A stretch of 64,000 nucleotides of DNA from an uncultured archaeon (GTDB lineage: Archaea; Asgardarchaeota; Thorarchaeia; Thorarchaeales; Thorarchaeaceae), in contig CAZSWP010000018.1 in the NCBI GenBank assembly GCA_964610875.1, positions 1 through 64,000 on the forward strand, read 5' to 3'. Position numbers and translations under genes: made by a program. This document shows, one piece after another, positions 16,070 to 64,000 of the stretch (position 1 is its first letter; every line of letters starts with the position of its first letter). Below the pieces are notes generated by a model. The model ran no database searches, was not told where the DNA came from, and saw nothing but the letters and a program-made list of their open reading frames with translations.

Positions 16070-16168
16070 TTCTCTGTCCTCTGGGCTATTTCTCTCCTTT
16101 ATGATAAGGCTTGTGTCATTGACATAGAATTAGCACGAGTCTGCAAGGGTTTGATAACAGCTACATGA

Positions 16169-16189
16169 AACCCAGACAAACCTAGACAT
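16169..16189 (+). repeat. Left subterminal repeat (two 10-bp units), inverted partner of 24697-24717
   Basis: AACCCAGACA-AACCTAGACA-T matches the reverse complement of 24697-24717 at 19/21 positions. Confidence 0.8.
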
Positions 16190-16217
16190 TGATTAGGTTA
16201 TAGTTTTACGAAAGACC

Positions 16218-16838
16218 ATGTTCTCAGTAGCACAAGCTGCTCTTCGCCTTGGTGTCTGTGTCAAGACCCTCCATCGATGGGACCATGTAGGCAAGCTCCA
16301 CTGCACGAGGACTCTGGGTGGGCATCGCAGGATCCCCCTCTCTGAAGTCAACCGTCTGCTGGGCATCTTCCATCGGAAGCTCCTCGACACTCCACCTCAA
16401 CGAAAGAGATGCGCCATCTATGCACGAGTATCAGGTCATCGACAGAAGACTGATGGAGACCTTGACAGACAACTTCACACGCTCACACAGGAATGTAAGA
16501 ACCTATTCAGGACCAGCCCCATCGTCCTCTCAGACATCGGTTCCGGACTGAACATGCGACGCAGATGCCTCAAACGGTTATTGAAACTAGCTAGACAAGG
16601 TGTGATCCATGCAGTGCTCCTCACTCATAGGGACAGGCTAGCACGATTTGGAGTGGAACTTATTGAACGCATCCTAGAAGAGTATGGAGTCAAAGTTATT
16701 GTGCTCTATGAGGAGACCCATCAGACCCCACAAGAGGAACTGGTCACTGACATGATGGCCCTGCTAGCCTCCTTCTCAGGGAGGGTCTATGGGCTTCGGG
16801 CCCGACAACACAGCAAGTCTACCACTCTCCAAACCTGA
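16218..16838 (+). CDS. tnpA: IS607-family serine recombinase/transposase TnpA
   Basis: MerR-like HTH (LGVCVKTLHRWD..GGHRR), then YARVS (catalytic Ser), DIGSGLN, RDRLARFG and ELVTD...SFSGRVYGLR. Confidence 0.95.
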   Translation: MFSVAQAALRLGVCVKTLHRWDHVGKLHCTRTLGGHRRIPLSEVNRLLGIFHRKLLDTPPQRKRCAIYARVSGHRQKTDGDLDRQLHTLTQECKNLFRTSPIVLSDIGSGLNMRRRCLKRLLKLARQGVIHAVLLTHRDRLARFGVELIERILEEYGVKVIVLYEETHQTPQEELVTDMMALLASFSGRVYGLRARQHSKSTTLQT

Positions 16839-19800
16839 ATCCTACCTTCTTCATCAGCTGAATCACATCTTCTTCAATAGCTCCGTGTTCTCTGTCTGCA
16901 ATACCATAGCTCTCCAGTGCACTAGTAATATCACTACTGACCGTGACTGGGGAGATGAGGTCTCCTGTGGGAGGTGAGAATGGTGGAATAACTCGGACTC
17001 CCACAACATCTCCAGTAGTGGTTTCAAAGACCGCTTCGATATACCGCATCTTGGTCGTACGGTCAGTACAGAGCTGCACCTCTCTATAGTGTACATCCTC
17101 TCTTGAAAGGACATCTTCTTCAGCAGCAGAGTCCTCCCTGCTTTCTCGTTCTGTTTTATAAAGCTCGGAGATTCCTGCAAGTCGTTCTGTCAGTTCTGTT
17201 TCATTCAACAAAAGGTACTGCCCGATCTCACTCCCCTCCTCCTCCATAGCTTCAATGAGTGCTTCACAGTCCGTTTCCGTGAAGGAATGACAATAGATTT
17301 TGACCTCTGTCCCATCCTCTTCCCATCTCCTGATGGTGAGGGTGTAGTCACCTGCACTTCCAGAAATTTCTCCAATGCATTGGGGTGGGGTCTCACTCCA
17401 TCCGCGACAAATCAGGTCCTCCCGGAGAGAACCAAACACCGTTTCTACGTTTTCAAGGTGAAGGATATCCACCACACTGGAGACGACCTCTTGGAATTCT
17501 GCTAGGATGCTCTCAAGGTCACGAGTCGGGTCCAATTGGAACGAATATAGATTGTTCATCCAGATCTTCCCTGTGGTGAGGGAAACCACATGCCAGTTGA
17601 TGGCAGTCTTGGAGAGAGAGACCTGTAGATTCCATGAGTTTCTGGTCCAGTCGAAATCATCTGGATGAACACTCCGCACTGACTCTTGCAACCTTGGATA
17701 CGACCGGAGGTGATAGTCCTCCACTCCGAGAAGCCCTCGTACATCCCATTTGACCTCATGGAACAGCTGATTCTTGGTATCGAAGAGTCTTGTTGTTTCC
17801 ACCAGGAGTCCTGCTTCAAAGAGGGAGAGGACCACCCCATCATAGGGGGCCAGAGATGAAGTTGAAGAGACTCCCGTTATAGATATTCTGACCTCATTGT
17901 ACCAGTCATCCACCGCATCAAGCTTCATGGTCACTGGAGCTACCTCTTGCATGGAGAGGAGTTCATGACAGGTCGTCGGATACTGGTAGAGGTCACGGAG
18001 GAACCAGCTCCGTTTCACCAGCGGGATGAGAAAGGTCAGTGATCCATCATAGGTGATGTCACTACGATGGTCCCAGCTCAGATAGCCGATAGTGGTTTCA
18101 TACCCCACACCACGACTGATTGGTCGTCTGAGAACAGACACCAGTTCATCTGTGTCAGTAATGCGTTCCTGTACATCCCCTTCTGTGGTCTCGAAGTCAA
18201 TGACATACTCCTCCCATTCCTCGTCAAGAGCAACCGTGAGGGTAACAGGAATGACCTCTTTCTTGAGTTGGACAAGTCGTAGTAGCTCGGTGTCTATCTG
18301 TTGAGATGAAGTCTTGCCAACTACTGGAAGATGGAGATTTTCAAGAGAGAGGGAGGGGACTACGAACGGATTGGAGAGCTTGATCCAGGGGACAATCCCA
18401 TGTTCTCTATTGAGCGTACTATGTTCGAACACATAGGGAGTCCATGTGTCTTCCTCCTCAAGATACAGCCAGAGAATCCTATGTTGTTCCACTTCAGTGA
18501 TTAGAACATCGGTACGTTGTGAAACACCAAGTGCTCCTTGTGCCATCTCATTGAGAACTGCTGGATCTGTTTCACACCGAGACCATCCCTCAGAGAGCCA
18601 TGGTCCTAAAAGTCCTGTTATGCATCCTGTGAGGTAACCATGGGATGTATGAGGGACTACTAGTATAGCTGCAGAGAGGTTGCCTTCCTCTAGCCAGATG
18701 ATATGTCCTGCTCGACTGCTGGTTCTAAGAGAATGCTCAATGTGCAGCTGCATCAGGATCCTTTTTCGCCATTCCAAGTCCCTATGAATGGCATAGAGGT
18801 CATACTTTGCCTCTATATTCTCAGTATCTGAACGCAGTCCCATCTGATAGAGTGTCCATCCTGTGACTGCCTCCCAGAGCGTTTCTCCAAGGGCACTCTG
18901 AAGATCATCATCATCCTCTTGCTGTATGACAGCACAGACCAGAAGAAAGAGATTGTTTCCGTATAGGAGAAAGAGGTCTGGATGCTTCTCCAACGTTCCC
19001 TCCAGTGCCTGTCTGTGGTCAGAGTTCAGAAGGTGAAAGAGCGCTTTCCGTTGTGGACGGAGTGTCTCCCAGAGAGGTACAAGAGTATCTTCAGAGAGGA
19101 TGATCTCTTGGATTTCATACAGTACTTGTAGTAATTGCTTTGAATCATGGCGTCCCGTTCCCTTTATCGAACTGAGTATGCTTTTACATAGAGAGACTAT
19201 CTTCTCACAGGTACTCTGAATCCCTTTTGGAAGCAGTCTTTCGAGAAGATACTGTGCTGCTGAGTAGATTCTCCTAATCTCCCACAGTCGGGAAGCGACC
19301 GTATCTAGAGAAAAATATAAACTGGAGGGAGTGCTTGGTGGTCGGCAGTGTGTCCATATTGTCCCATCCTCATTCTCAGTTAACACTTTTCTGGGGGTTC
19401 TCTCATAGAACCATCTCCGGGTAATCTTGTTGGCTGATGAATGTGTCTTGCTTGAGCGCGGCGATTCAGGAGGTGGTCTGTCAGAGCAGAATCGCACTCT
19501 TTGCATGAGGGTCTGAGATGATGATGCAACTACTTCATGGGAAACAAATGGTATCTTCTCTTCTATGGTTTCATCAAAGACCTCCTCTTCCGACCTTGGT
19601 CTTCCAAGACTGGGAATTAGGTCTTCAGTAGATGTTAACATCTCAACATGCCGTTCTCTGGTGAGTCGTTCAATGGAGCTCTGGATAGATATGAGTCTGG
19701 TTTCTCTTGCATACATGTTTCTCTGTGTGTGTACTTCTCTCCTCACATCTGCTTCAGTGATATGTCCGTCCCGCCGAGAGCTCCCTCTGAACCGTCGAGA

Positions 19801-22335
19801 GAAGTCAATGAGGTATGGCACATGAATCATGGTCTGCCAAGGTCGTGTCTTTGTTGGGATGTCCTGCACGATGATTCGCAGGTCCTCACGCCATGGGACC
19901 AGATTACCAAAGCAACGAGGATGGAGAGGGATGTTGTAGAGAATCTCATCGAGGTGATACCGTCGTGGTGAGTCAAAGGGAAGAGGCGAGATACCGTTCC
20001 GCTGGTAGTCTGCTGAGAATCGAGTATGCTGTACTCCCTCATCGATCCAGATGAGATTCGTATTCTTGGTAGGGAGTTGTTCAAGTAGTAGGAGTTCCAG
20101 CCGCTTGAGAAGATATCCCTCAGAAGAGGGAGCAACCTTCTTGAGTTCACTCCACCCATCAAGAATGATTATGTTTTGTTGTTCTTTGTCAATATGTTCT
20201 AGAATCTGCTCCAGTGTATTCTCTGTGTCTGCGAGCAGTTCATCCACTGGAGTTTCCGGAGAGATGAACACGATGTCCTTCAAGATGGCTTGAAGTTCAT
20301 GATATTCTTGCAGAGTCAATTTCTTTTCACCAAGGAGGAAGTCTAAGCCAAATCGACTCTGCACAAGCTGCTCAGAAGAGAAGTCACCAAGGAGGTCTAT
20401 CCAATAGACCTTGATAGGGTCTTCTTCTACCTCTCTGCATTCTCTAATGTGATGGAGGAGATGATAGTTCCGAGACCGATATGCAGCGGTCGTTCCTGAA
20501 GAGGTGGGTGCAGGAATTGATACATAGAGGGTGAAGAACCGTTCGTCTGCAACTCTGTCTTTGAAAGGATTTTCAACAGTTGGAATTGTTGGTTCAGCAA
20601 GGTCTTGTAGCAGATAAATGGGACCTCTTGAGGGCAGAGTGAGTAATGCAACACGTTCTTTGATAGTATAAGAAGATGGAGCATCTTCTGTGGGGCATTC
20701 TCCTACTTCTAGCTTCTTACTGATAGCTTCCAGAATCCTTTGGAAATCATCAAAGACATCCTCTGGTGACTGGTCCGTGTCCAGTATGATAATGCCTTTC
20801 CAGAGAAACATGGGTGGAGTCATGTCTGAATCCATTATGTCACCGTATTCATCTAGCAATAGGTTCTCATAGGCGCGGAGTTGGTCAATGTGCTCCTTAT
20901 CAGGTGGCGAGATTAGTAATGTGTCCCATTCCCCTTGTGTCAGTCCTCGCTTCCAGACATGGGACACTGGAACATAGTCGTCCTTGGTCTTACTCCCAAT
21001 CTTCTTACCAAAAATATTGAATTCAAACCCCGTCTTGGTCTTGACCTCTAAGACCATGACCGGAGTCCAGATGCACCTCTTGCCCACCTTTCGTCTGATG
21101 AAGAATGTTAGGTCTACCTGTCCCTGTCTGTTCTTGAGAGGGAGTTCTCCCACAACTAGGACGGATGAAGGTGTATCCATCATTTTATCTCCTGCAAAGA
21201 CGACCTGTTTCAGGGACTTGGGATGATGCAGGGCTGAGAGGAGGACACGATGCCAGCGAGTTCCCTCCTCTGAACTCAACTGGAGCATTTGCTTTGTGAG
21301 CTTCTCCACATCTCGATCATGGAGGATACCCTGATCTATCAGATTGAGAATATGGCAATGCTGTTTCTTCTGTTCCTCGTTATCAGAGTTCTCTAGACTT
21401 GCTTCTATGATACTCTTGAGATAGTCAAGCGAGTACTCCGGTTCATCATCAAGACTGGCAGTGATGGATCTCCTCTCTCCGATATGCCGCCCATAGAGTG
21501 CCCGTAACTCAAGAATGATGTCCCAAAGAATCTTACGGGCATCTTTGATAAAGTAGGGTTTTCCATCTTTGCCTTCCGTGTAGACCCAGTCAAGATAGGG
21601 TCGAAGCTTGAGAATGAGGCGTCTGATATAGCGATGAGCCTCCGTACGAGGGACATTGTGGATGAAGCACTGACGGCAAAGCTCGTACACGTGACACCTG
21701 ATCATATCAACAAAGTCAAGACTGGGAAGGGTGGGATGAGCGAGAAAGACCTGTGGTGTCGTGGAAGTGCCACTGTAGCCTGCTTTCCAGTAGACCTTGA
21801 CATTCTCATCCACACTTGGTTTTACGTGTTCATACTCTCCAGTCTGTTTCAGACTGTCGATGAGTTCCTTGGCATAGACCTTGTATGAACCGTCAGGATA
21901 CCTCCAGATTTGAAAGAACCGAGGTTCAGGAAAGGGATACCTGGTCATAGCGAGCTCTCGAAGCCGTGCCCCAGCGTAATTGAGCAATGCATTGAGAGGC
22001 CCTACTGTACCTTTTGCCCAATCATAGACCCTCTTTCGTTCCTTGTTTCCATAGGGGACTGTACTCATCCAGAGAAATTGAAGGAACGTTTTGCGGATAT
22101 TTGCTTCCTTCTTACTCAAAGGAAAATAGTCGGGCCTTATGCCTTCTTGTTCGTCTAGTGTGTGCCGAACTTCATTCCACATCTTGTAGATGGACTTTCT
22201 TATACTCCGATACTGATGTTTGGTTCGGGACTCGATTATCTTCACTAATCCCCGAATGCCCTTGTAGGACGCCCGTGTAAGGACCACATTTGGTCGGAAC
22301 GCTCGCGCTATTCTTCCCATTCTTATTCTGTACAA
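16819..22335 (-). CDS. Giant (1838 aa) element-encoded protein with PD-(D/E)XK nuclease motifs and a degenerate P-loop-like region
   Basis: Long uninterrupted ORF. It contains GELPL..GQVDL..VLEVKTK..QLRAY, then APTSSGTT / YWIDL / IIILDGW. A homolog lies at 61271-64000. The start may be the ATG at 22320. Confidence 0.8.
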   Translation of the reverse strand: MYRIRMGRIARAFRPNVVLTRASYKGIRGLVKIIESRTKHQYRSIRKSIYKMWNEVRHTLDEQEGIRPDYFPLSKKEANIRKTFLQFLWMSTVPYGNKERKRVYDWAKGTVGPLNALLNYAGARLRELAMTRYPFPEPRFFQIWRYPDGSYKVYAKELIDSLKQTGEYEHVKPSVDENVKVYWKAGYSGTSTTPQVFLAHPTLPSLDFVDMIRCHVYELCRQCFIHNVPRTEAHRYIRRLILKLRPYLDWVYTEGKDGKPYFIKDARKILWDIILELRALYGRHIGERRSITASLDDEPEYSLDYLKSIIEASLENSDNEEQKKQHCHILNLIDQGILHDRDVEKLTKQMLQLSSEEGTRWHRVLLSALHHPKSLKQVVFAGDKMMDTPSSVLVVGELPLKNRQGQVDLTFFIRRKVGKRCIWTPVMVLEVKTKTGFEFNIFGKKIGSKTKDDYVPVSHVWKRGLTQGEWDTLLISPPDKEHIDQLRAYENLLLDEYGDIMDSDMTPPMFLWKGIIILDTDQSPEDVFDDFQRILEAISKKLEVGECPTEDAPSSYTIKERVALLTLPSRGPIYLLQDLAEPTIPTVENPFKDRVADERFFTLYVSIPAPTSSGTTAAYRSRNYHLLHHIRECREVEEDPIKVYWIDLLGDFSSEQLVQSRFGLDFLLGEKKLTLQEYHELQAILKDIVFISPETPVDELLADTENTLEQILEHIDKEQQNIIILDGWSELKKVAPSSEGYLLKRLELLLLEQLPTKNTNLIWIDEGVQHTRFSADYQRNGISPLPFDSPRRYHLDEILYNIPLHPRCFGNLVPWREDLRIIVQDIPTKTRPWQTMIHVPYLIDFSRRFRGSSRRDGHITEADVRREVHTQRNMYARETRLISIQSSIERLTRERHVEMLTSTEDLIPSLGRPRSEEEVFDETIEEKIPFVSHEVVASSSQTLMQRVRFCSDRPPPESPRSSKTHSSANKITRRWFYERTPRKVLTENEDGTIWTHCRPPSTPSSLYFSLDTVASRLWEIRRIYSAAQYLLERLLPKGIQSTCEKIVSLCKSILSSIKGTGRHDSKQLLQVLYEIQEIILSEDTLVPLWETLRPQRKALFHLLNSDHRQALEGTLEKHPDLFLLYGNNLFLLVCAVIQQEDDDDLQSALGETLWEAVTGWTLYQMGLRSDTENIEAKYDLYAIHRDLEWRKRILMQLHIEHSLRTSSRAGHIIWLEEGNLSAAILVVPHTSHGYLTGCITGLLGPWLSEGWSRCETDPAVLNEMAQGALGVSQRTDVLITEVEQHRILWLYLEEEDTWTPYVFEHSTLNREHGIVPWIKLSNPFVVPSLSLENLHLPVVGKTSSQQIDTELLRLVQLKKEVIPVTLTVALDEEWEEYVIDFETTEGDVQERITDTDELVSVLRRPISRGVGYETTIGYLSWDHRSDITYDGSLTFLIPLVKRSWFLRDLYQYPTTCHELLSMQEVAPVTMKLDAVDDWYNEVRISITGVSSTSSLAPYDGVVLSLFEAGLLVETTRLFDTKNQLFHEVKWDVRGLLGVEDYHLRSYPRLQESVRSVHPDDFDWTRNSWNLQVSLSKTAINWHVVSLTTGKIWMNNLYSFQLDPTRDLESILAEFQEVVSSVVDILHLENVETVFGSLREDLICRGWSETPPQCIGEISGSAGDYTLTIRRWEEDGTEVKIYCHSFTETDCEALIEAMEEEGSEIGQYLLLNETELTERLAGISELYKTERESREDSAAEEDVLSREDVHYREVQLCTDRTTKMRYIEAVFETTTGDVVGVRVIPPFSPPTGDLISPVTVSSDITSALESYGIADREHGAIEEDVIQLMKKVGFRFGEW

Positions 22336-22508
22336 TACCTTGTTCTTATTTACTTATAAGTAATAGTACTTTTATTAAGAAACCATAATATAGAGTTTAA
22401 AACATTATAATCACTCAAAATCAAAAAATAAGTTCTCATAATATTCTAATCTTGATAACTTTATAACTAAATATGACAATATAACCCCTGCTATAGAATA
22501 GAGAGTGG
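22336..22508. promoter_or_regulatory. AT-rich divergent promoter region (cargo / tnpB)
   Basis: Very AT-rich spacer inside a GC-richer element, with TATA-like CTTATAAG (~22353) and TTTATAA (~22460). Confidence 0.55.
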
Positions 22509-24704
22509 ATGACGATGAAGCAAGACTCACCCCGGTGTCATCTCCGGGTGCAGAAGGAGGAATCTCCGAAGCAGAAGACAATAGATGACAACTTTATAAC
22601 TGATTCATCGACGTCCGAAGAGAACAGACCACTGAAGACCGGGTTGAAATACCTTGTAGAGTCCTTCACACTCTGTTCTATTGATCGTGAAGTGAACAAG
22701 AAGGGGAAGATAAAGCGACCTGGTCCTCGCTTTCGTCGAAAGACAAGAGCTCATGACATCCAGACTCCTTTCGAGCAAGCTACTGGGAGAAAAGTCCAGA
22801 ACCCCGACCTATCCCTATTAGGTTCTTACTTTGAGAAGTATGTTGAGTTAGTGAATCTTGTCCTTGAGCGAGTGTATTCTCATCAGGGAAGGATTGATGC
22901 TCTAGGGGAGGAGCTGCATTCCTATCGTGGTCAGGGGTATGTCCTGTTGAAGAAAGAGGAATACCTCACCTATAGCCGCAATGAAGAGGTCAAGGCCCAG
23001 TGCTTTGAACGCATGTATCGCAATGTCTTGGAACAGGCTGCGAGGGTCATTCATTCGAACTGGATGCGAAGACAGTTGATGCTCAGTGCTATTACTTCTA
23101 TCAAAGAGGATAGAGACATCGTGCTGTCTTTCTTGAAGAACAAGTACATCCCAGCTAAGTTGGCAAAGGTGGTGCGTGAGAGTTGCGAGTGTGTCAAGAA
23201 CAATGGTTCAGGATATTACTACTCCCTGTCTGTATTGAAGCAGCTCAGGAAAAGGATAGATGAACACATCCTCTCAGAGCGAGGAGAACCCCTTGGCTCT
23301 CGAAAGTCCCAGCGAAGACGAGTGAGTGGCTATCTCAGAGATACTACTGAAGGTGCTGGTGTTCTTGCCAGTGTTGATGCCCTCTTACAGGAGTTTATTG
23401 AGAGTGGATATTCCTTTGAAACGCCAAGGATGTTCTCCTATACCGGGGATTTCTCAGCTTCCACAGAGAACAGTCCCGGACAGGGCTACTGGTACTCACG
23501 GGACCCTGAGAAGGAGCATGAGATATTCTTCTTCCTCAAACTCCCCGAACCCCTTGAAGGTACAGAACAAATGGGTTCACCCTATAGAACAAACACACTT
23601 CCTTTCCGATTTCTCAATTGGTTACCACGAGCTGCAAAGAGGGACAGAGAGAAGGCAAAATTAGCTGATAAAGAAGGGAAATCACTTCGAGCCAGGAAGC
23701 TCAGGTTTCGAGCACGAAGGTTCGAGGACATGCAGCAACAGCTTATCAACACCATTGAGCTCCAACATGCGACCTATCAACTTGCACGGTTGCAGTCCAG
23801 ACGAGTGAAGGACACTGAAAAGATCAAGATACTACAGGAGAAGATAGACGGACTTCGAGAAGCACGGACCTGTGGCCCGCCAAGACTTCTTCTTCGTGGA
23901 CACCGAGTAGAACTCCAGATTCCTTTCTTACCACCAACCAGAGAGATGCTGGATGATGAACTTGGGACAACCCGGACCTATCACAGGCGAGCAGGTGCAG
24001 ACCGGGGTGTCCGAGTCCCCATTGTCCTCTCTGTACGGAATGGCGAGGGGGAGTTTGTGGATGAGCTTGTGGCTTGTGATGAACTACTCCAGAAACGGGA
24101 CCTCCTCAGGGAGCAGACCAAAGCCCTGAGCTCACAAGTCAAACGGATGCGGAACAACTGGGACCGCAAGTACCCTGACCATTCTCGTTCCTATCCCGAC
24201 CACCTGTTGAAGAAGGAACGACACCTTACAGCAATCTGGAGAAAGATTCGCAGACTCGATAGAGAGATAGCTCGTCAGGTGGCAAGTCAGACGGTCTGGT
24301 TCTGTGAGATGCACGGAGTGAAGATGCTGTACTTCGAGAACCTCAAGAACTACACACCTGCCGCCGGGTATGGAAATCTGTCATGGCGATTGAGCTCAAA
24401 CCTCTGGTCAAAGGTTCTGGATACGGTCAGGTACATGCGCCAGTCCCTCGGACACAAGTATGGAGGGATATGGACCGTGAGTCCGGCATGGACCTCTCAG
24501 AAGTGTCATGTCTGCGGAGAGCGAGGCATTCGCGTAGAAAAACCGGATGCCACAGATGAATACAGAGGAGGAGAGTTCTTCCATTGTGAAAATTGTGGAT
24601 GCAGAATCCATGCGGATGTCAATGCCGCACGAAACATCATTGATGTGAAGTTCAAGACACCCAGTGCCGTTTCTGGGCAGACAACACTAGACCCCCATGT
24701 CTAG
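22509..24704 (+). CDS. tnpB: Large TnpB/Cas12-like RuvC RNA-guided nuclease (731 aa)
   Basis: RuvC-I GADRG, RuvC-II YFENL, Zn finger TSQKCHVCG..CENCG and RuvC-III HADVNAARNI. It lies at the right end of an IS607-like element. Confidence 0.9.
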   Translation: MTMKQDSPRCHLRVQKEESPKQKTIDDNFITDSSTSEENRPLKTGLKYLVESFTLCSIDREVNKKGKIKRPGPRFRRKTRAHDIQTPFEQATGRKVQNPDLSLLGSYFEKYVELVNLVLERVYSHQGRIDALGEELHSYRGQGYVLLKKEEYLTYSRNEEVKAQCFERMYRNVLEQAARVIHSNWMRRQLMLSAITSIKEDRDIVLSFLKNKYIPAKLAKVVRESCECVKNNGSGYYYSLSVLKQLRKRIDEHILSERGEPLGSRKSQRRRVSGYLRDTTEGAGVLASVDALLQEFIESGYSFETPRMFSYTGDFSASTENSPGQGYWYSRDPEKEHEIFFFLKLPEPLEGTEQMGSPYRTNTLPFRFLNWLPRAAKRDREKAKLADKEGKSLRARKLRFRARRFEDMQQQLINTIELQHATYQLARLQSRRVKDTEKIKILQEKIDGLREARTCGPPRLLLRGHRVELQIPFLPPTREMLDDELGTTRTYHRRAGADRGVRVPIVLSVRNGEGEFVDELVACDELLQKRDLLREQTKALSSQVKRMRNNWDRKYPDHSRSYPDHLLKKERHLTAIWRKIRRLDREIARQVASQTVWFCEMHGVKMLYFENLKNYTPAAGYGNLSWRLSSNLWSKVLDTVRYMRQSLGHKYGGIWTVSPAWTSQKCHVCGERGIRVEKPDATDEYRGGEFFHCENCGCRIHADVNAARNIIDVKFKTPSAVSGQTTLDPHV

Positions 24705-25125
24705 CTTTGTCTAGGTTACAATCAACGGTTCTACCTAACTCTCTACACTTCTCAAGCATCTCTTCATTAGGATAATCTTTTACCTTAACCGGCTGTCCGT
24801 CAATGAGTAAAGCATCTACATTCTGAAGCGCATCAGCAATCTCATCGGGAGCTTCTCCACTCCACCCATATGAACCAAATGCTGCAGCTCTAATACCTTT
24901 TAGTGATGTCATCTTCGATAATATTTGTTTAATCTTTGGAAGAGGTCTCTTCATCCGCGTTGAACTTCCCATAGCAATAGCGCATGCATCATCGAGGTCT
25001 GTATAGTCTTTTGCCTCTATAAGAACACATTCCTTCCCAGATGCAGTTACTCCTTCGCACACTGCTTCAGCCATTGTCTTTGTTCTACCTCGTGTTGACT
25101 CATAGATCACATTTACCTTTGACAT
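24652..25125 (-). CDS. Flavodoxin-like (FprA C-terminal-like) protein, 3' end interrupted by the element
   Basis: Motifs VIYESTRGRT, AFGSYGWSGEA and EKCRELGR. Its native last codons lie at 16130-16149, and the current tail is element-derived. Confidence 0.85.
   Translation of the reverse strand: MSKVNVIYESTRGRTKTMAEAVCEGVTASGKECVLIEAKDYTDLDDACAIAMGSSTRMKRPLPKIKQILSKMTSLKGIRAAAFGSYGWSGEAPDEIADALQNVDALLIDGQPVKVKDYPNEEMLEKCRELGRTVDCNLDKARHGGLVLSAQKRHWVS
24660..24748 (+). ncRNA. Predicted omegaRNA 3' scaffold (to 24728) plus flank-derived guide; 5' extent unknown
   Basis: Hairpin CCCAG/CTGGG whose loop CCGTT is complementary to the terminal AACGG (pseudoknot). A second hairpin is AGACAA-ca-CTAGAC/GTCTAG-ct-TTGTCT. 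Two other copies show compensatory changes. Confidence 0.65.
24697..24717 (-). repeat. Right subterminal repeat (two 10-bp units)
   Basis: A-TGTCTAGCTT-TGTCTAGGTT, inverted relative to 16169-16189. Confidence 0.8.
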
Positions 25126-25174
25126 AATCTGTAGATGATTATGCATGTAACTAAAGATTTCTGAATGGAATTTT

Positions 25175-25873
25175 TTGTACAATTGTGTGAAAATGTCAGG
25201 CGATATTGACCTTCTCAAAAAGAAAGCTGGTATTGTATGTGAACTTCTCATTGATAATTATGGTGATAAAATAGTAGAGCGAAAACTACCTCCTATTGAT
25301 GAACTCATTCTCACAATACTGAGTCAGAATACTAACGATGTCAATATGTTCCGTGCTTTTAAATCTCTCAAGGAAAAATATGTTGACTGGAATGAAGTAC
25401 TCAATGCACCTGAGGAAGAGATTGGACAAGCCATAGTTTCATCGGGGTTTTTCAGAGTGAAGGCAAAACGAATCAAGGCAACTCTACAAGAGATTATGAA
25501 GCGGAGAGGATCATTAGACATCGCATTTCTAGAAGACATGCCTGTTGAAGAAGCTACTGAATGGCTTACTTCTCTCCATGGAGTTGGTCCAAAGACTGCG
25601 GCAATAGTCCTACTATTTTGTTTTGAAAAGTCTACTTTACCAGTAGATACACATGTGTGGCGATTGAGTAAGAGATTGGGCTTAGTACCAAAGAGAACTA
25701 GTAGGGAGAAAACTCAGACACTACTTGAGAGTCTTATTCCTCCCAAGTGTATCTTCTCACTTAATCATAATCTTATCAAACATGGACGAACAATCTGCAA
25801 AGCACGAACCCCTCTATGTGAAGATTGTTTTCTTCAGAGTTTATGTAGGTATTACAGTGAAAAGAGCAGATAA
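25175..25873 (+). CDS. nth: Endonuclease III (HhH-GPD glycosylase)
   Basis: Motifs ILSQNT, LHGVGPKTA, PVDTHV and the FeS motif CKARTPLCEDCFLQSLC. Confidence 0.9.
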   Translation: MYNCVKMSGDIDLLKKKAGIVCELLIDNYGDKIVERKLPPIDELILTILSQNTNDVNMFRAFKSLKEKYVDWNEVLNAPEEEIGQAIVSSGFFRVKAKRIKATLQEIMKRRGSLDIAFLEDMPVEEATEWLTSLHGVGPKTAAIVLLFCFEKSTLPVDTHVWRLSKRLGLVPKRTSREKTQTLLESLIPPKCIFSLNHNLIKHGRTICKARTPLCEDCFLQSLCRYYSEKSR

Positions 25874-47814: not shown

Positions 47815-48276
47815 ATGGCAAAGCTCGAACAATCTGGTGTCTTTCTGTTATCCGATAGTTTTGAGTCAACCACTCAATTCTATGAAAATATACTATCCCC
47901 GGTGCCGTTGCTGGGCTGACAACATTGGACTACCATGTCTAGGTTACAATCAACGGTTGAGTTTGGTTCATTTGGCTTCTGAATATATAGCTCGACCAAG
48001 TAAATATGCCTGAACCTTGGTTCAAGGAAAAAGTGTCTGAGAATTACTTGAACTACTTAGAGAAAGGTGTTATTGATTCACTACCGTTATGCTCCCAATG
48101 TGATAATCCCTTTTCAAACGGATGATATTCAGGAAATACACAAGCAAATCTTTGAGAGAAAACCTAAACCCGAATTCATCACGGATATCCTGCGAGTCAC
48201 TTTCAGCATTCCTTACTCGTTCTTCGAATTCGCCAACCCAGAAGGAAACATGGTAGAGGTTTTTCAATTCACCTGA
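47815..48276 (+). pseudogene. VOC/glyoxalase-family pseudogene containing an element remnant
   Basis: The N-terminus ...STTQFYENIL and the C-terminus FEFANPEGNMVEV are separated by an element end, stops and frameshifts. Confidence 0.6.
47898..47956 (+). mobile_element. Solo right end of the IS607-like element
   Basis: CCCGGTGCCGTTGCTGGGCTGACAACATTGGAC..CATGTCTAGGTTACAATCAACGG aligns with 24660-24728, lacking one 10-bp unit. Confidence 0.85.
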
Positions 48277-60196: not shown

Positions 60197-60668
60197 TCAC
60201 CAGGTTTTATGTTGTCATTTTTTGATATTGAAATATCATGCCAAAATGATAGTTTGTTACAATGATTTTCCGTACACAAGTCAATATCTACTATTTGTTG
60301 CGCGCATTTCCAATAACGGGAAAAAATGTACGAAATTGTGCCCAATTATTACACAAGGCAGAGAAAATCGGCAAATTGGGGTGTTTCATTACCAGAAACG
60401 AATTCTTCAGACTTTTAGGGTTCATTCTTAGTGTACACGCGATTACTCTCATCTACTAAATGCGATTCTTCCTCATCTGGTTGGTGATTCGGAGAATCAC
60501 GACTAATTGCTAACTAAAGAATGTCTTTGTAACAATCAGTGGGATAGAAATTATCCTCATCCTTCTCGTGATTTGTATACCATACTTGAGCGAAGAACGG
60601 GTTGCCGACAGCTAGTAAAAATCAAGATAAACCTAGACATTGATTAGAAGTCTCTTTGAAGGAACGGT

Positions 60669-61283
60669 ATGTTCTCAGTATCACAAGCAGCTCTCAGGTT
60701 GGGAGTATGTATCAAGACCATCCATCGATGGGACAAGGCTGGCAAGCTCCACTGTCATCGTACCATCGGTGGACACCGCCGCATCTCCCTTGCAGAGGTC
60801 AACCGCATCCTTGGGCTCTTTCATCGGGACCTCATCGATCATCCTGATAGGAAACGATGTGCCATCTATGCCAGGGTGTCCAGTCACCGACAGAAGCGTG
60901 ATGGGGACCTTGACCGACAACTCCAGACCCTTACCAAGGAGTGCAGGAAACGATTCAAGTCACGTCCTCTGGTCTTCTCAGATGTTGGCTCCGGGCTGAA
61001 CATGAAACGGAGGGGGCTCGCCAAGCTCTTCTCCCTCGCAAAGTCAGGAGCTATCCACACCCTCCTCATCACTCACAAAGATAGATTAGCTCGGTTCGGA
61101 GTCGAGCTCCTTGAGCGGATCCTCACTGACTACGGCATCAGACTCCTTGTCCTCTACCATCCAGAAGACCAGTCACCACAACAAGAGCTCGTCACCGACC
61201 TCATGTCCCTCATCGCCTCCTTTTCGGGTCGCGTCTATGGACTCCGTTCTCATCAGTCCAAGATTGTCCCTCAGTCCTCATAG
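60669..61283 (+). CDS. tnpA: IS607-family serine recombinase TnpA (copy 2)
   Basis: Same motifs as 16218-16838 (YARVS, DVGSGLN, KDRLARFG, SFSGRVYGLR). Confidence 0.95.
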   Translation: MFSVSQAALRLGVCIKTIHRWDKAGKLHCHRTIGGHRRISLAEVNRILGLFHRDLIDHPDRKRCAIYARVSSHRQKRDGDLDRQLQTLTKECRKRFKSRPLVFSDVGSGLNMKRRGLAKLFSLAKSGAIHTLLITHKDRLARFGVELLERILTDYGIRLLVLYHPEDQSPQQELVTDLMSLIASFSGRVYGLRSHQSKIVPQSS

Positions 61284-64000
61284 AACACGACTCCCTCCTT
61301 GACCAGTACCTCTTCCACAATATCAAAGACATCACTGAGGATAGCGCTAGCAACTTCTAGTCCTTGAAGGTTACCCTGTATCTCCCCTCTTACCATCTCA
61401 CGCGATTCTCCTCCAGTGTTGCGAGAAACTTCGCATAACTTGCCCACATATCCAATGACCGTGAACTCATCCTCGCCTCCAGCAGCATATTCGATCGTGA
61501 TGATGACCTGGTCATCCCGCACTACCGCATCTACTACCTTCAAGACCTCTAGCCCTTGGGTGGTCCCTTCACTTTCTACCTTCTTCTGTGGTAGGTCTTG
61601 CTCCTCGAAATCGAGTTCGACATATCTGTCCTCCTCTCTTACCTGTTCTTCAGACCATCCTCGTTCTAGCAGAGCCTCTCGGAACTCGGCAAGCTTCTCC
61701 TCGATTCCATTCACCTGATTCAGCGCCACCACCTCTGACACCTTCTCCCGGAAGTGGTCAAGTGCCTCATCTACTGATACATCCTCAAGGAACAGGTGCG
61801 AGAAGGTCTTGTTCCGCCAGGTTCTCCTTTTCTGTGGAGAATAGATGGACCATGAGACCTCGCGATGATAGCACAGGTGTGCGCTGAACTTCCACGTTCC
61901 ATCGTTCGACCAATCGAACTCGCTCTCGTCAGCTGAGTCCAGCGCTTCTCGCATTCGGGGGTATCTTTGGAGGTGCCAGAACTGCTCGTCCATGATGGCT
62001 GTCATATCCATCTTCACGGGATGCAGGGTACTCGTCTTGGGGTCGTACAGCTCGGTGCATTCAGCCAGCAGGCATAGCTGTGACTTCGACAACTCCACCT
62101 GTTCCAGCTCTCGAAGCAGCGAGGTCTGAGGCATACCAATCATCTTTACCCGATAGGAGTTCCGCTCCTGTTGTACCGGTTTCAGGGTGATATCCTCCCC
62201 GGTCGATGCGGCAAGGAGGTGCTTGCAAGTGGGGGGGTAGTGGTACTCGTCCGGAAAGAACCAGCTCCGATGCACCAATGGCTTGAGGAACGAGAACCCT
62301 GTCCCGTACTCGATATTCTCGCGATGGTCCCAGGTGATGAACTTTCGTTGGGTACGATATCCAGTAGCGGACCAGACAGGGGTACGGAGGAACTGCACGA
62401 GGTCATCGGTCCGGGAGAATTCTCTTTGCTCTGATAGTGACTCTGTGCTGATGTGCACCACATAGACCTCAAGGTCCTTGTCCGCAGACACAAGTAGTTT
62501 GGCTTGCTGCATCTCATACTTGATCTGGGTCATGGATGCAAGGACATCCAACGCGGAGTCAGGAAAATCCGGTTCTGTACCAAGGTCGAACACCATTGAC
62601 AGGTCCTCAAGGATGAGCCACGGGATGACATGATGTCTTCCTGCAGGTCTCCCGTGCTTGACGAGGAACGATACCCAGATGCGTTCATCCGCTTCGTTCA
62701 AAGCTGGAAGATGGAGGATATCATTTCCTTCAAAAGTGCTCATGATGACTGTGGTGAATGATTTCGAGATGAGGGCGTTATCAGCAAAGTCCTTGAGTGC
62801 TAGCCCATCTGTCGTCACAGCATGGTATTTGGGAGGGAGCCAGGTGTCTTGTAAGTTCTTGATGATGCCGGAAAGATAGGTCCCATCCTCTTGCGGAAGG
62901 AGAAAGAGGGCATCAAAGACCATGTCGTTCTCCTCCCAGTAGATGACACCAACTCGTTGCTGATGCACTGCAGGAGCCTTTGGGAGGGGAATCTCTGCCA
63001 ACCTTCTCGCTCGTGTCCGAAGCTTGGTGAAAATGGACACGAAACTGTACACAGTACGAACGGCCTCATCCTGCAAGGACAGTCCGATTTGATAGAAGGT
63101 CCATTCTGCGATGCTTCTCCAGAGCACCTCGATATGAGCTCGTTCTAGTCTATCGTTGACAGCGAGCAAGGCAAGGAAGAGGTTGTTCCCATATAGCAAG
63201 AAGAGGTCTTGGTTCTGTCCCAACACGTCCTCTAGGGACTCCCTGTTCTCCGACTTCAATAGGTCCTTCAGTCCTTCCCTGTAGGGAGTAAGGAACTCCC
63301 AGAGCTCCCTTCGATCCTTGTCCTGCAGGATGATCCGTTGTACTTCCTTTAGTGCTCCAAGGAAGAACGTGGAAGTCCGTACCTGTGGCTGGTCCTTGAG
63401 GAGGGCGAACTGTCTCTTGCAATGGTCTTCGACCTTCTTGCAGCAGGTCCGTACTCTCTTTGGAACGAACTCCTTGGTCCATAAATAATGTGCAGCGTTC
63501 AGTAGTCGCCTGAGTTCCTTCTCTCTATCCTCCATGGTATCGATCTGTGAAGGAACAAGGGTTGTTCCCTGTGGCGGATAGGTAACCGTCAATGGACCTT
63601 CAGGGTCTTCCGGGAACTGTCGTGGGGTCTGCTCGTATCTCCACGGGCGAGTGATCTGTGAAGATGTCTTCTGGGAGAGGGTATCGATGAACCTGTTCGA
63701 CCCCTTCGGGGTTGGCGGTGGTCTAGTGACATCCACCTGCACGCGGTCACGGAACACTGTCCCTCCGCTAGCTTGCACAGGTGCGATACGTGATTGCCAT
63801 CTCTGTGCACCCTCTTCATTTTGGATTGGACTTTTTCCTTCTGAGACTGCCCGTTCTCGAAGGACACTGGGAATCAGGGTAAGGGCATCATCTATCACTC
63901 GTTCATCAACATCGTCCATGGGAACTGAGATGGACGTTAATCGCACTCCCTTCCCATGCATAGGGGTCAATCTGAATTGCTCCTGCTGGATCACCTCATA
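61271..64000 (-). CDS. C-terminal part of the giant cargo protein homolog (5' truncated by window edge)
   Basis: Shares LFLLYGNNLFL, WDHR, PLV.RSWF, YP.TC..LL, YPR and FDW with the 1838-aa protein. The frame stays open to 64000. Confidence 0.85.
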   Translation of the reverse strand, partial: YEVIQQEQFRLTPMHGKGVRLTSISVPMDDVDERVIDDALTLIPSVLRERAVSEGKSPIQNEEGAQRWQSRIAPVQASGGTVFRDRVQVDVTRPPPTPKGSNRFIDTLSQKTSSQITRPWRYEQTPRQFPEDPEGPLTVTYPPQGTTLVPSQIDTMEDREKELRRLLNAAHYLWTKEFVPKRVRTCCKKVEDHCKRQFALLKDQPQVRTSTFFLGALKEVQRIILQDKDRRELWEFLTPYREGLKDLLKSENRESLEDVLGQNQDLFLLYGNNLFLALLAVNDRLERAHIEVLWRSIAEWTFYQIGLSLQDEAVRTVYSFVSIFTKLRTRARRLAEIPLPKAPAVHQQRVGVIYWEENDMVFDALFLLPQEDGTYLSGIIKNLQDTWLPPKYHAVTTDGLALKDFADNALISKSFTTVIMSTFEGNDILHLPALNEADERIWVSFLVKHGRPAGRHHVIPWLILEDLSMVFDLGTEPDFPDSALDVLASMTQIKYEMQQAKLLVSADKDLEVYVVHISTESLSEQREFSRTDDLVQFLRTPVWSATGYRTQRKFITWDHRENIEYGTGFSFLKPLVHRSWFFPDEYHYPPTCKHLLAASTGEDITLKPVQQERNSYRVKMIGMPQTSLLRELEQVELSKSQLCLLAECTELYDPKTSTLHPVKMDMTAIMDEQFWHLQRYPRMREALDSADESEFDWSNDGTWKFSAHLCYHREVSWSIYSPQKRRTWRNKTFSHLFLEDVSVDEALDHFREKVSEVVALNQVNGIEEKLAEFREALLERGWSEEQVREEDRYVELDFEEQDLPQKKVESEGTTQGLEVLKVVDAVVRDDQVIITIEYAAGGEDEFTVIGYVGKLCEVSRNTGGESREMVRGEIQGNLQGLEVASAILSDVFDIVEEVLVKEGVVFYED

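Follow-up and report, generated by a model that had tools for sequence, protein, structure and literature searches.

An IS607-type transposon of a Thorarchaeaceae genome with a giant Cas1-like gene between tnpA and tnpB

Cas12 descends from TnpB, and CRISPR systems use Cas1 as their integrase. The DNA considered here, a 64,000-nucleotide stretch ('the window') of an uncultured archaeon of the Thorarchaeaceae (GenBank assembly GCA_964610875.1, positions 1 to 64,000 of contig CAZSWP010000018.1, or C18), holds at 16150-24728 an IS607-type element in which a gene for a giant protein with a Cas1-like domain lies between tnpA and tnpB. Experimentally characterised IS607 elements have a strict GG core, a 5'-TGGG target that doubles as the target-adjacent motif (TAM), no inverted repeats and no duplications (bioRxiv 10.1101/2023.11.20.567912). 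An association of Cas1 homologues with TnpB in Asgard archaea has been described computationally: Asgard Cas1 (aCas1)-associated TnpBs occur in two Asgard groups, Cas1H-Asgard-1 and Cas1H-Asgard-2, a conserved repeat-like GTTCACTCA follows a hypervariable stretch downstream of tnpB, and aCas1 has been suggested to serve as a transposase, in place of a Y1 or serine one (Altae-Tran et al. 2023, PMC10691335). Giant proteins are likewise encoded by the aloposons of Heimdallarchaeia, Asgard mobile elements with tandem genes for proteins of 3,000-6,000 aa, tRNA integration sites, a ParA-like operon and no tnpA or tnpB (Wu et al. 2022, PMC8813620); this gene content and the tRNA sites rule out aloposon identity for the window element, and the two are unrelated.

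The original prediction, drawn from the letters of the window, did not recognise the architecture among described elements; in fact the giant-TnpB pair is the aCas1-associated TnpB already published (PMC10691335), the N-terminus of the giant being Cas1-like. What is new here is the coexistence of that pair with a working-looking IS607 tnpA, exact ends and many mini-copies. The map, taken from the open reading frame (ORF) list of the window, runs tnpA, a convergent giant ORF, a divergent AT-rich spacer and tnpB, with no further ORF within the element:

16150-24728 (+), whole element of 8,579 bp, between the 3' end of a flavodoxin gene and an ABC-transporter promoter (empty site, synteny, G+C step)
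16150-16217 (+), left end, of the same layout in other copies (sequence comparison)
16218-16838 (+), tnpA, IS607-type serine recombinase (Pfam, NCBIfam)
16819-22335 (-), giant gene, 1,838 aa from a TTG start, overlapping the end of tnpA by 20 nt
22336-22508 (no strand), AT-rich divergent spacer of 173 bp with presumed promoters (sequence)
22509-24704 (+), tnpB of the long clade, 731 aa (PF07282)
24480-24728 (+), right end, together with a presumed omega-RNA scaffold that overlaps the 3' end of tnpB (conservation, compensatory changes, fold z-score -2.7)
24729-24750 (+), flank, putative TnpB guide and target by analogy with IS607 TnpB (bioRxiv 10.1101/2023.11.20.567912)

Removal of 16150-24728 and joining of the flanks regains a 180-aa flavodoxin ORF, and three related genera (genomes G001, G014 and G016) carry the order endoIII-flavodoxin-ABC1-ABC2 without an insert, with a flavodoxin-ABC1 gap of ~94-115 bp; this empty-site reconstruction and the insert-free synteny establish that the 8,579-bp insertion and its boundaries are real, their placement being ambiguous by a GG common to both sides. 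The G+C fraction is ~0.48 within the element and ~0.40 outside it, the occupied left junction is bridged by one contig from microbial-mat DNA runs, and the element's ends recur in other metagenome genomes. At the occupied site the flavodoxin gene (24729-25251) has its last 6 codons swapped for 25 element-derived ones, its reading frame being otherwise open.

TnpA is of IS607 type: a MerR-like helix-turn-helix (HTH) domain (PF12728/MerR) at residues 1-48 is followed by a resolvase domain (PF00239) at 66-197, a YARVS motif is present, and the protein scores 175 bits against the NCBIfam model of IS607-family transposases (NF033518; cut-off 110). At the left junction, the flank ..CAAGGG gives way to TT..ACAGCT.. 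and then to two CYAGACA repeats (core AACCTAGACATTGATTAG at 16179), which lie 39 nt 5' of tnpA in those copies that have the gene; the same layout, preceded by GG or GGG, is common to 10 copies, including that at 60602-60647 of the window and those at loci L032, L073, L077, L079 and L086-L090. The right end has two GTCTAG repeats, a terminal ACAATCAACGG and a final AACGG, with the tnpB stop codon 24 nt before it, and nine long-clade right ends can be aligned up to ..GTCYAG..TTACAAT(C/G)AACG(G/A), where their likeness halts sharply. A GG core is thus found at both target and right end, with neither terminal inverted repeats nor target duplication, and the GG(G) left flanks and AACGG right ends agree with experimentally characterised IS607. 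The ORF layout, the 8.6-kb insertion and the exact boundaries of an IS607-type element that had been proposed from the sequence are all borne out.

The resemblance to IS607 elements and IStrons (Zedaveinyte et al., bioRxiv 10.1101/2023.11.20.567912) extends from the HTH-first serine recombinase, the GG core and the GGG-type target to the lack of inverted repeats and duplication, a tnpB that runs into the right end, and derivatives without tnpA. Those elements, however, are of ~2 kb with two genes, whereas the window element is 8.6 kb long, 5.5 kb of it a Cas1-like gene set between tnpA and tnpB, and has a TnpB nearly twice the usual length and an archaeal host.

Derivatives reduced to the two ends are numerous in the same genome. 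The left and right ends of the window element bound 19 or more complete mini-elements of ~190 bp and several partial units; these occupy unique sites, each preceded by GGG, and include three pairs that are 99.5-100% identical. The right-end core is counted 25 times in this genome and 0-8 times in each of 40 others of its family. These sequences point to recent mobilisation of the mini-elements in trans, for which tnpA would be the obvious candidate because only IS607-type ends are kept. As the right-end hairpin is retained, guide-like RNAs may also be produced from them. Examples, each a mini-element, are:

G000:C3:143840-144028
C9:15590-15781
C27:56590-56778
C39:1545-1733
C9:76070-76260
C22:41460-41650

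Two copies of tnpA are present in the genome, both on contig C18 and both intact. The second belongs to a diverged copy of the whole element, for which the same tnpA-plus-giant layout had been noted, and which does hold the same three genes, with tnpB beyond the window:

60602-64000 and on past the window (+), second, diverged copy, with left end, tnpA and giant gene in view and tnpB beyond the window
60669-61283 (+), second-copy tnpA
C18:61271-66565 (-), second-copy giant gene, 1,764 aa, leaving the window
C18:66744-67782 (+), second-copy tnpB, interrupted by the contig end, so that the right end of this copy is not visible

The 731-aa protein is a diverged TnpB, matched by PF07282 and by weak Cas12f and TnpB models, in which the RuvC residues D498, E610 and D703 and a CxxC...CxxC zinc finger are intact and conserved across the long clade. 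A conserved hairpin, CCCAG..CTGGG, lies at 24660-24677, and compensatory changes in the right-end region fall at synonymous sites of HADxNAA codons, as expected for a guide-RNA scaffold that overlaps a gene; both are suggestive of a scaffold that takes in the right end as well as the 3' end of tnpB, for which region Rfam gives no match. A 21-nt match between the right flank and tnpB, 81% complementary, was judged to be due to chance.

The giant gene has an alternative start, an ATG at 22320, six codons in, which gives the 1,833-aa form found in public databases. Searches of Pfam, NCBIfam and PADLOC and a profile search of PDB sequences yielded no match for its product, a protein-atlas feature search yielded no usable one, and DnaB-intein matches at E 0.04 were disregarded. 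Structure modelling, fold comparison and residue conservation delimit the following regions:

21526-22314 (-), Cas1-like alpha-helical catalytic domain, residues 8-270 (VIA-align, hhalign motifs, conservation)
20776-21168 (-), RecB/Cas4-type PD-(D/E)xK nuclease motif set, residues ~390-520 (conservation, beta-sheet core in model)
19807-20547 (-), RecA/Rad51/KaiC-like fold with a degenerate Walker A, residues 597-843 (Foldseek, VIA-align, atlas fold search)
18781-19332 (-), possible second, degenerate Cas1-like helical domain, residues ~1002-1185 (VIA-align, weak)

In an AlphaFold model of residues 1-880 (predicted local distance difference test, pLDDT, 86; predicted template modelling score, pTM, 0.84), residues 7-271 are best matched by nine Cas1 or casposase chains (VIA-align Z 13.1-9.7, root-mean-square deviation ~4 Å, 164-196 residues aligned), with top Z values of 13.1, 12.5, 12.2, 12.1 and 10.9 in a search independent of Foldseek. 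Z values of this size can arise by chance among helical domains, and sequence motifs were therefore also checked. Alignment by hhalign with 29 canonical Asgard Cas1 proteins (P 0.03-0.04, alignment probability only 1-2%) pairs E77 with the catalytic Glu of Cas1, K101/R102...GPLNALLNY with its RR..P.NALLS motif and LD207FVD210MIR213 with its LD..E.FR motif. H200 is not placed on the Cas1 histidine by hhalign; six residues before D207, it is likely, from spacing alone, to be its equivalent. Among the residues so marked out (E77, the K101/R102...N115ALLN119 motif, H200, D207, D210 and R213), E77, H200, D207 and D210 are invariant or nearly so among 41 homologues. PF01867 (Cas1) matches neither the giant nor the 41 homologues even at an E of 10.

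The predicted nuclease-like character of the giant is upheld by the second region, which has a beta-sheet core in the model and is assigned to the RecB/Cas4 type by its motif set (D, E-x-K, QxxxY: E397, D408, E430, K432, Q485, Y489). This set is invariant or conservatively replaced in 41/41 homologues: D408, K432, Q485 and Y489 are present in all 41, and position 430 is E or D. The NTPase-like module proposed alongside it is right as to fold, a RecA-like one (Foldseek E 1e-4, VIA-align Z ~11, only RecA-like rows returned by the atlas fold search), and fails at the Walker A lysine: position 615 is T in the window's giant, and the lysine, present in only 9 of the 41 relatives, is missing in the other 32. 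The C-terminal half is modelled with a pLDDT of 87.5 and has no clear match, Foldseek returning nothing below E 0.006; within it, the top seven VIA-align matches of residues ~1002-1185 are all Cas1 or casposase chains, with Z of only 5.6-6.8, and this model-based likeness may reflect a degenerate Cas1-like unit that mimics a Cas1 dimer. In the giant, a domain like the catalytic one of Cas1 is followed by nuclease motifs of RecB/Cas4 type, by a RecA fold that in most homologues lacks the lysine, and by ~900 unassigned residues.

A Cas1-type catalytic fold with conserved, putatively catalytic E, H and D, joined with RecB/Cas4-type nuclease motifs, recalls casposons and Cas4-Cas1 modules. In contrast to these, the giant lacks the Cas1 N-terminal domain, a PF01867 match, Cas2 and a polymerase; the window element has neither terminal inverted repeats nor a target duplication, and the order is Cas1 then nuclease, within one 1,800-aa protein. 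ORFs of 1,323-1,363 aa with a genuine PF01867 domain, from another Asgard family (L135:8035-12126, L136:7766-11776, L137:4970-8941), bear no similarity to the giant.

Full-length homologues of the giant form 76 clusters in public proteins, all named ones being from Thorarchaeota or Promethearchaeia, and a profile of the N-terminal domain, run against 1.84 billion proteins, recovers 130 clusters (50% identity), giants or giant fragments only. Across 72 loci scanned in species-representative genomes, 51 have a long giant ORF; a divergent tnpB lies within 1.5 kb upstream of the giant in 40 of the 51, and a colinear one in 3 more. The giant-tnpB spacer measures 137-314 bp in 40/44 such pairs of other genomes, and of the seven giant paralogues of the present genome five have their 5' end within a contig, each with a divergent tnpB upstream. 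Head-to-head giant-TnpB pairing is thus near-universal, and both genes are under purifying selection (dN/dS, the ratio of non-synonymous to synonymous rates, 0.11-0.33). The giant had been called a core component and not chance cargo, a view sustained by its pairing with tnpB in nearly all loci; the linkage of its homologues is to tnpB, tnpA being found at a minority of loci, all of the long-TnpB clade.

TnpB proteins fall into a long clade (714-731 aa) and a short one (~550-610 aa), ~82% different from each other. The clade label switches at least 5 times on well-supported branches of the giant tree, which means that close giants pair with either TnpB clade and argues for a pairing that is functional rather than mere co-inheritance. 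Near-related giants with different TnpB clades include L027 and L031, and L026, L033, L028 and L079 (L022-L081 tree). tnpA or its decayed remnants adjoin long-clade tnpB genes at L028, L032, L077 and L079, with only decaying remnants at L028 and L079, and occur also at L048, L073, L075 and L090, where tnpB is cut or off the contig. In short-clade relatives, homology stops at the stop codon of the giant. A colinear variant, from a distant giant subfamily with the same right end, has on one strand tnpA, a giant of ~1,420 aa, a Rad51/RadA-like gene (PF08423, E 5e-21), a 235-aa ORF and tnpB:

L077:9030-18300, colinear variant
L075:9839-17041, colinear variant
L076:1398-8263, colinear variant

The published repeat-like sequence separates the two clades. 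GTTCACTCA lies on the tnpB strand in 24/30 short-clade loci, at a fixed position ~100 nt past the stop codon or within an extended ORF, and in 0/9 long-clade copies; in the window it has chance-level occurrences only, none near tnpB. Its fixed place in short-clade relatives identifies the giant-TnpB pairing with that of the published aCas1-TnpB loci, with which the window element shares an Asgard host and a Cas1-homologue gene adjoining tnpB, and from which the window copies differ in belonging to the long-TnpB clade, in lacking GTTCACTCA and in having an IS607 serine recombinase and IS607-type ends. Downstream of short-clade tnpB, a conserved scaffold ..GGTGGTGACACTGGCA..GGAACACAGAAGTTTC.. 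is followed by a short variable stretch and then by GTTCACTCA, of which L081 has two copies 115 nt apart. Examples of the scaffold are:

L036:7956-8067, short-clade scaffold
L033:2414-2522, short-clade scaffold

The element is probably an autonomous IS607-family transposon of a Thorarchaeota-specific lineage, with the published aCas1 giant as a fixed third component between tnpA and tnpB. By analogy with characterised IS607, TnpA would excise and integrate the element through a GG crossover beside an NGGG target without duplication, and would move the ~190-bp mini-elements in trans by the same crossover; the guide RNA of TnpB would cover the 3' end of tnpB together with the right end and continue into the flank, and with it TnpB would cut emptied donor sites, the element then being restored by homologous recombination. 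Transposition and homing steps of this kind fit every sequence feature tested. Several observations weigh against this account. Protein identities between the two contig copies of 70% (tnpA), 39% (giant) and 41% (tnpB) mean that they are not recent duplicates, and neither an empty-site nor a circle joint was found in 4-5x contigs of two microbial-mat DNA runs from one study. The Cas1 component is itself atypical: its helical domain begins at residue 8 of the model, the Cas1 N-terminal beta-sandwich domain being absent, the ORF list of the element includes no Cas2 partner, and Cas1 homology at the sequence level is statistically weak (hhalign P ~0.03). Most giant-TnpB copies, the whole short clade included, lack both tnpA and window-type ends, so that there the giant itself may mobilise DNA.

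With a Cas1-like gene, a TnpB and a conventional transposase side by side, the mobility of the element can be considered apart from the role of the Cas1-like protein, two matters treated as one in the published aCas1-TnpB description. In the long-TnpB clade, the giant is probably not the primary transposase, IS607 ends and mini-elements arguing against that role. The constancy with which it is paired with TnpB, residues like those of nucleases and integrases, and a recombinase theme, seen in the RecA fold and in the Rad51-like neighbour of the colinear variant, suggest, with low certainty, a partner of TnpB for processing and joining DNA ends, acting on the break or on element DNA. It is unlikely, though worth stating, that a serine-recombinase transposon has recruited a Cas1-like/Cas4-like protein as a TnpB partner and not as a transposase, to process TnpB breaks for homing or to write new guides; if so, the element would be an extant intermediate that links TnpB transposons with the adaptation of type V CRISPR-Cas systems.

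A casposon-like arrangement, in which the Cas1-like giant acts as the real transposase and the IS607 tnpA is a hitch-hiker or a second, redundant mobility system, is judged quite unlikely for the window's clade. Here the ends are of IS607 type, as are the GG target and the absence of duplication; recently multiplied mini-elements retain IS607-type ends only; and tnpA is intact in both window copies and decaying in L028 and L079, the fate expected of a transposase that once worked. The proposal, already made for aCas1-TnpB loci (Altae-Tran et al. 2023, PMC10691335), draws on the majority of giant-TnpB loci that lack tnpA, on short-clade copies of 4-19% non-synonymous divergence (synonymous divergence, dS, 0.13-1.37) in unrelated flanks, and on the invariance of the putative Cas1 catalytic residues. 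Were the giant only a second transposase, the element would amount to a modest extension of a catalogued family.

The persistence of the pair under purifying selection without tnpA, and the joining of Cas1-like and Cas4-like domains with a Cas12-like nuclease, would also suit an array-less CRISPR-like defence or addiction module carried as cargo by an IS607 element. This is improbable, however, for a giant without a PADLOC match in an element whose sequence, when searched, contains no repeat array, and for a pair that is always found within transposon ends and that, as a selfish element would, occurs in multiple diverged copies per genome.

Renewal or installation of the TnpB guide by the giant, through a Cas1-Cas4 activity akin to adaptation and acting on one guide slot, would place the element between TnpB transposons and type V CRISPR. 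This reading accords with the Cas1-like plus Cas4-like combination and with the hypervariable stretch before GTTCACTCA in aCas1-TnpB loci (PMC10691335), a motif confirmed in short-clade relatives, yet is very improbable here, as the window's clade is without GTTCACTCA, the sequence just beyond its right end is unique, as for ordinary IS607 elements, and neither Cas2 nor any direct sign of guide turnover is found.

In this genome, the exact ends, the two tnpA-bearing copies and the ~190-bp mini-elements provide ready substrates for assays of mobility by TnpA, of the guide and TAM used by TnpB, and of any activity of the giant as an integrase or nuclease. Elsewhere in the window, intergenic and with no tnpB upstream, lies one further trace of the same right end:

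47898-47956 (+), solo 59-nt right-end fragment, with the hairpin and GTCTAGGTTACAATCAACGG

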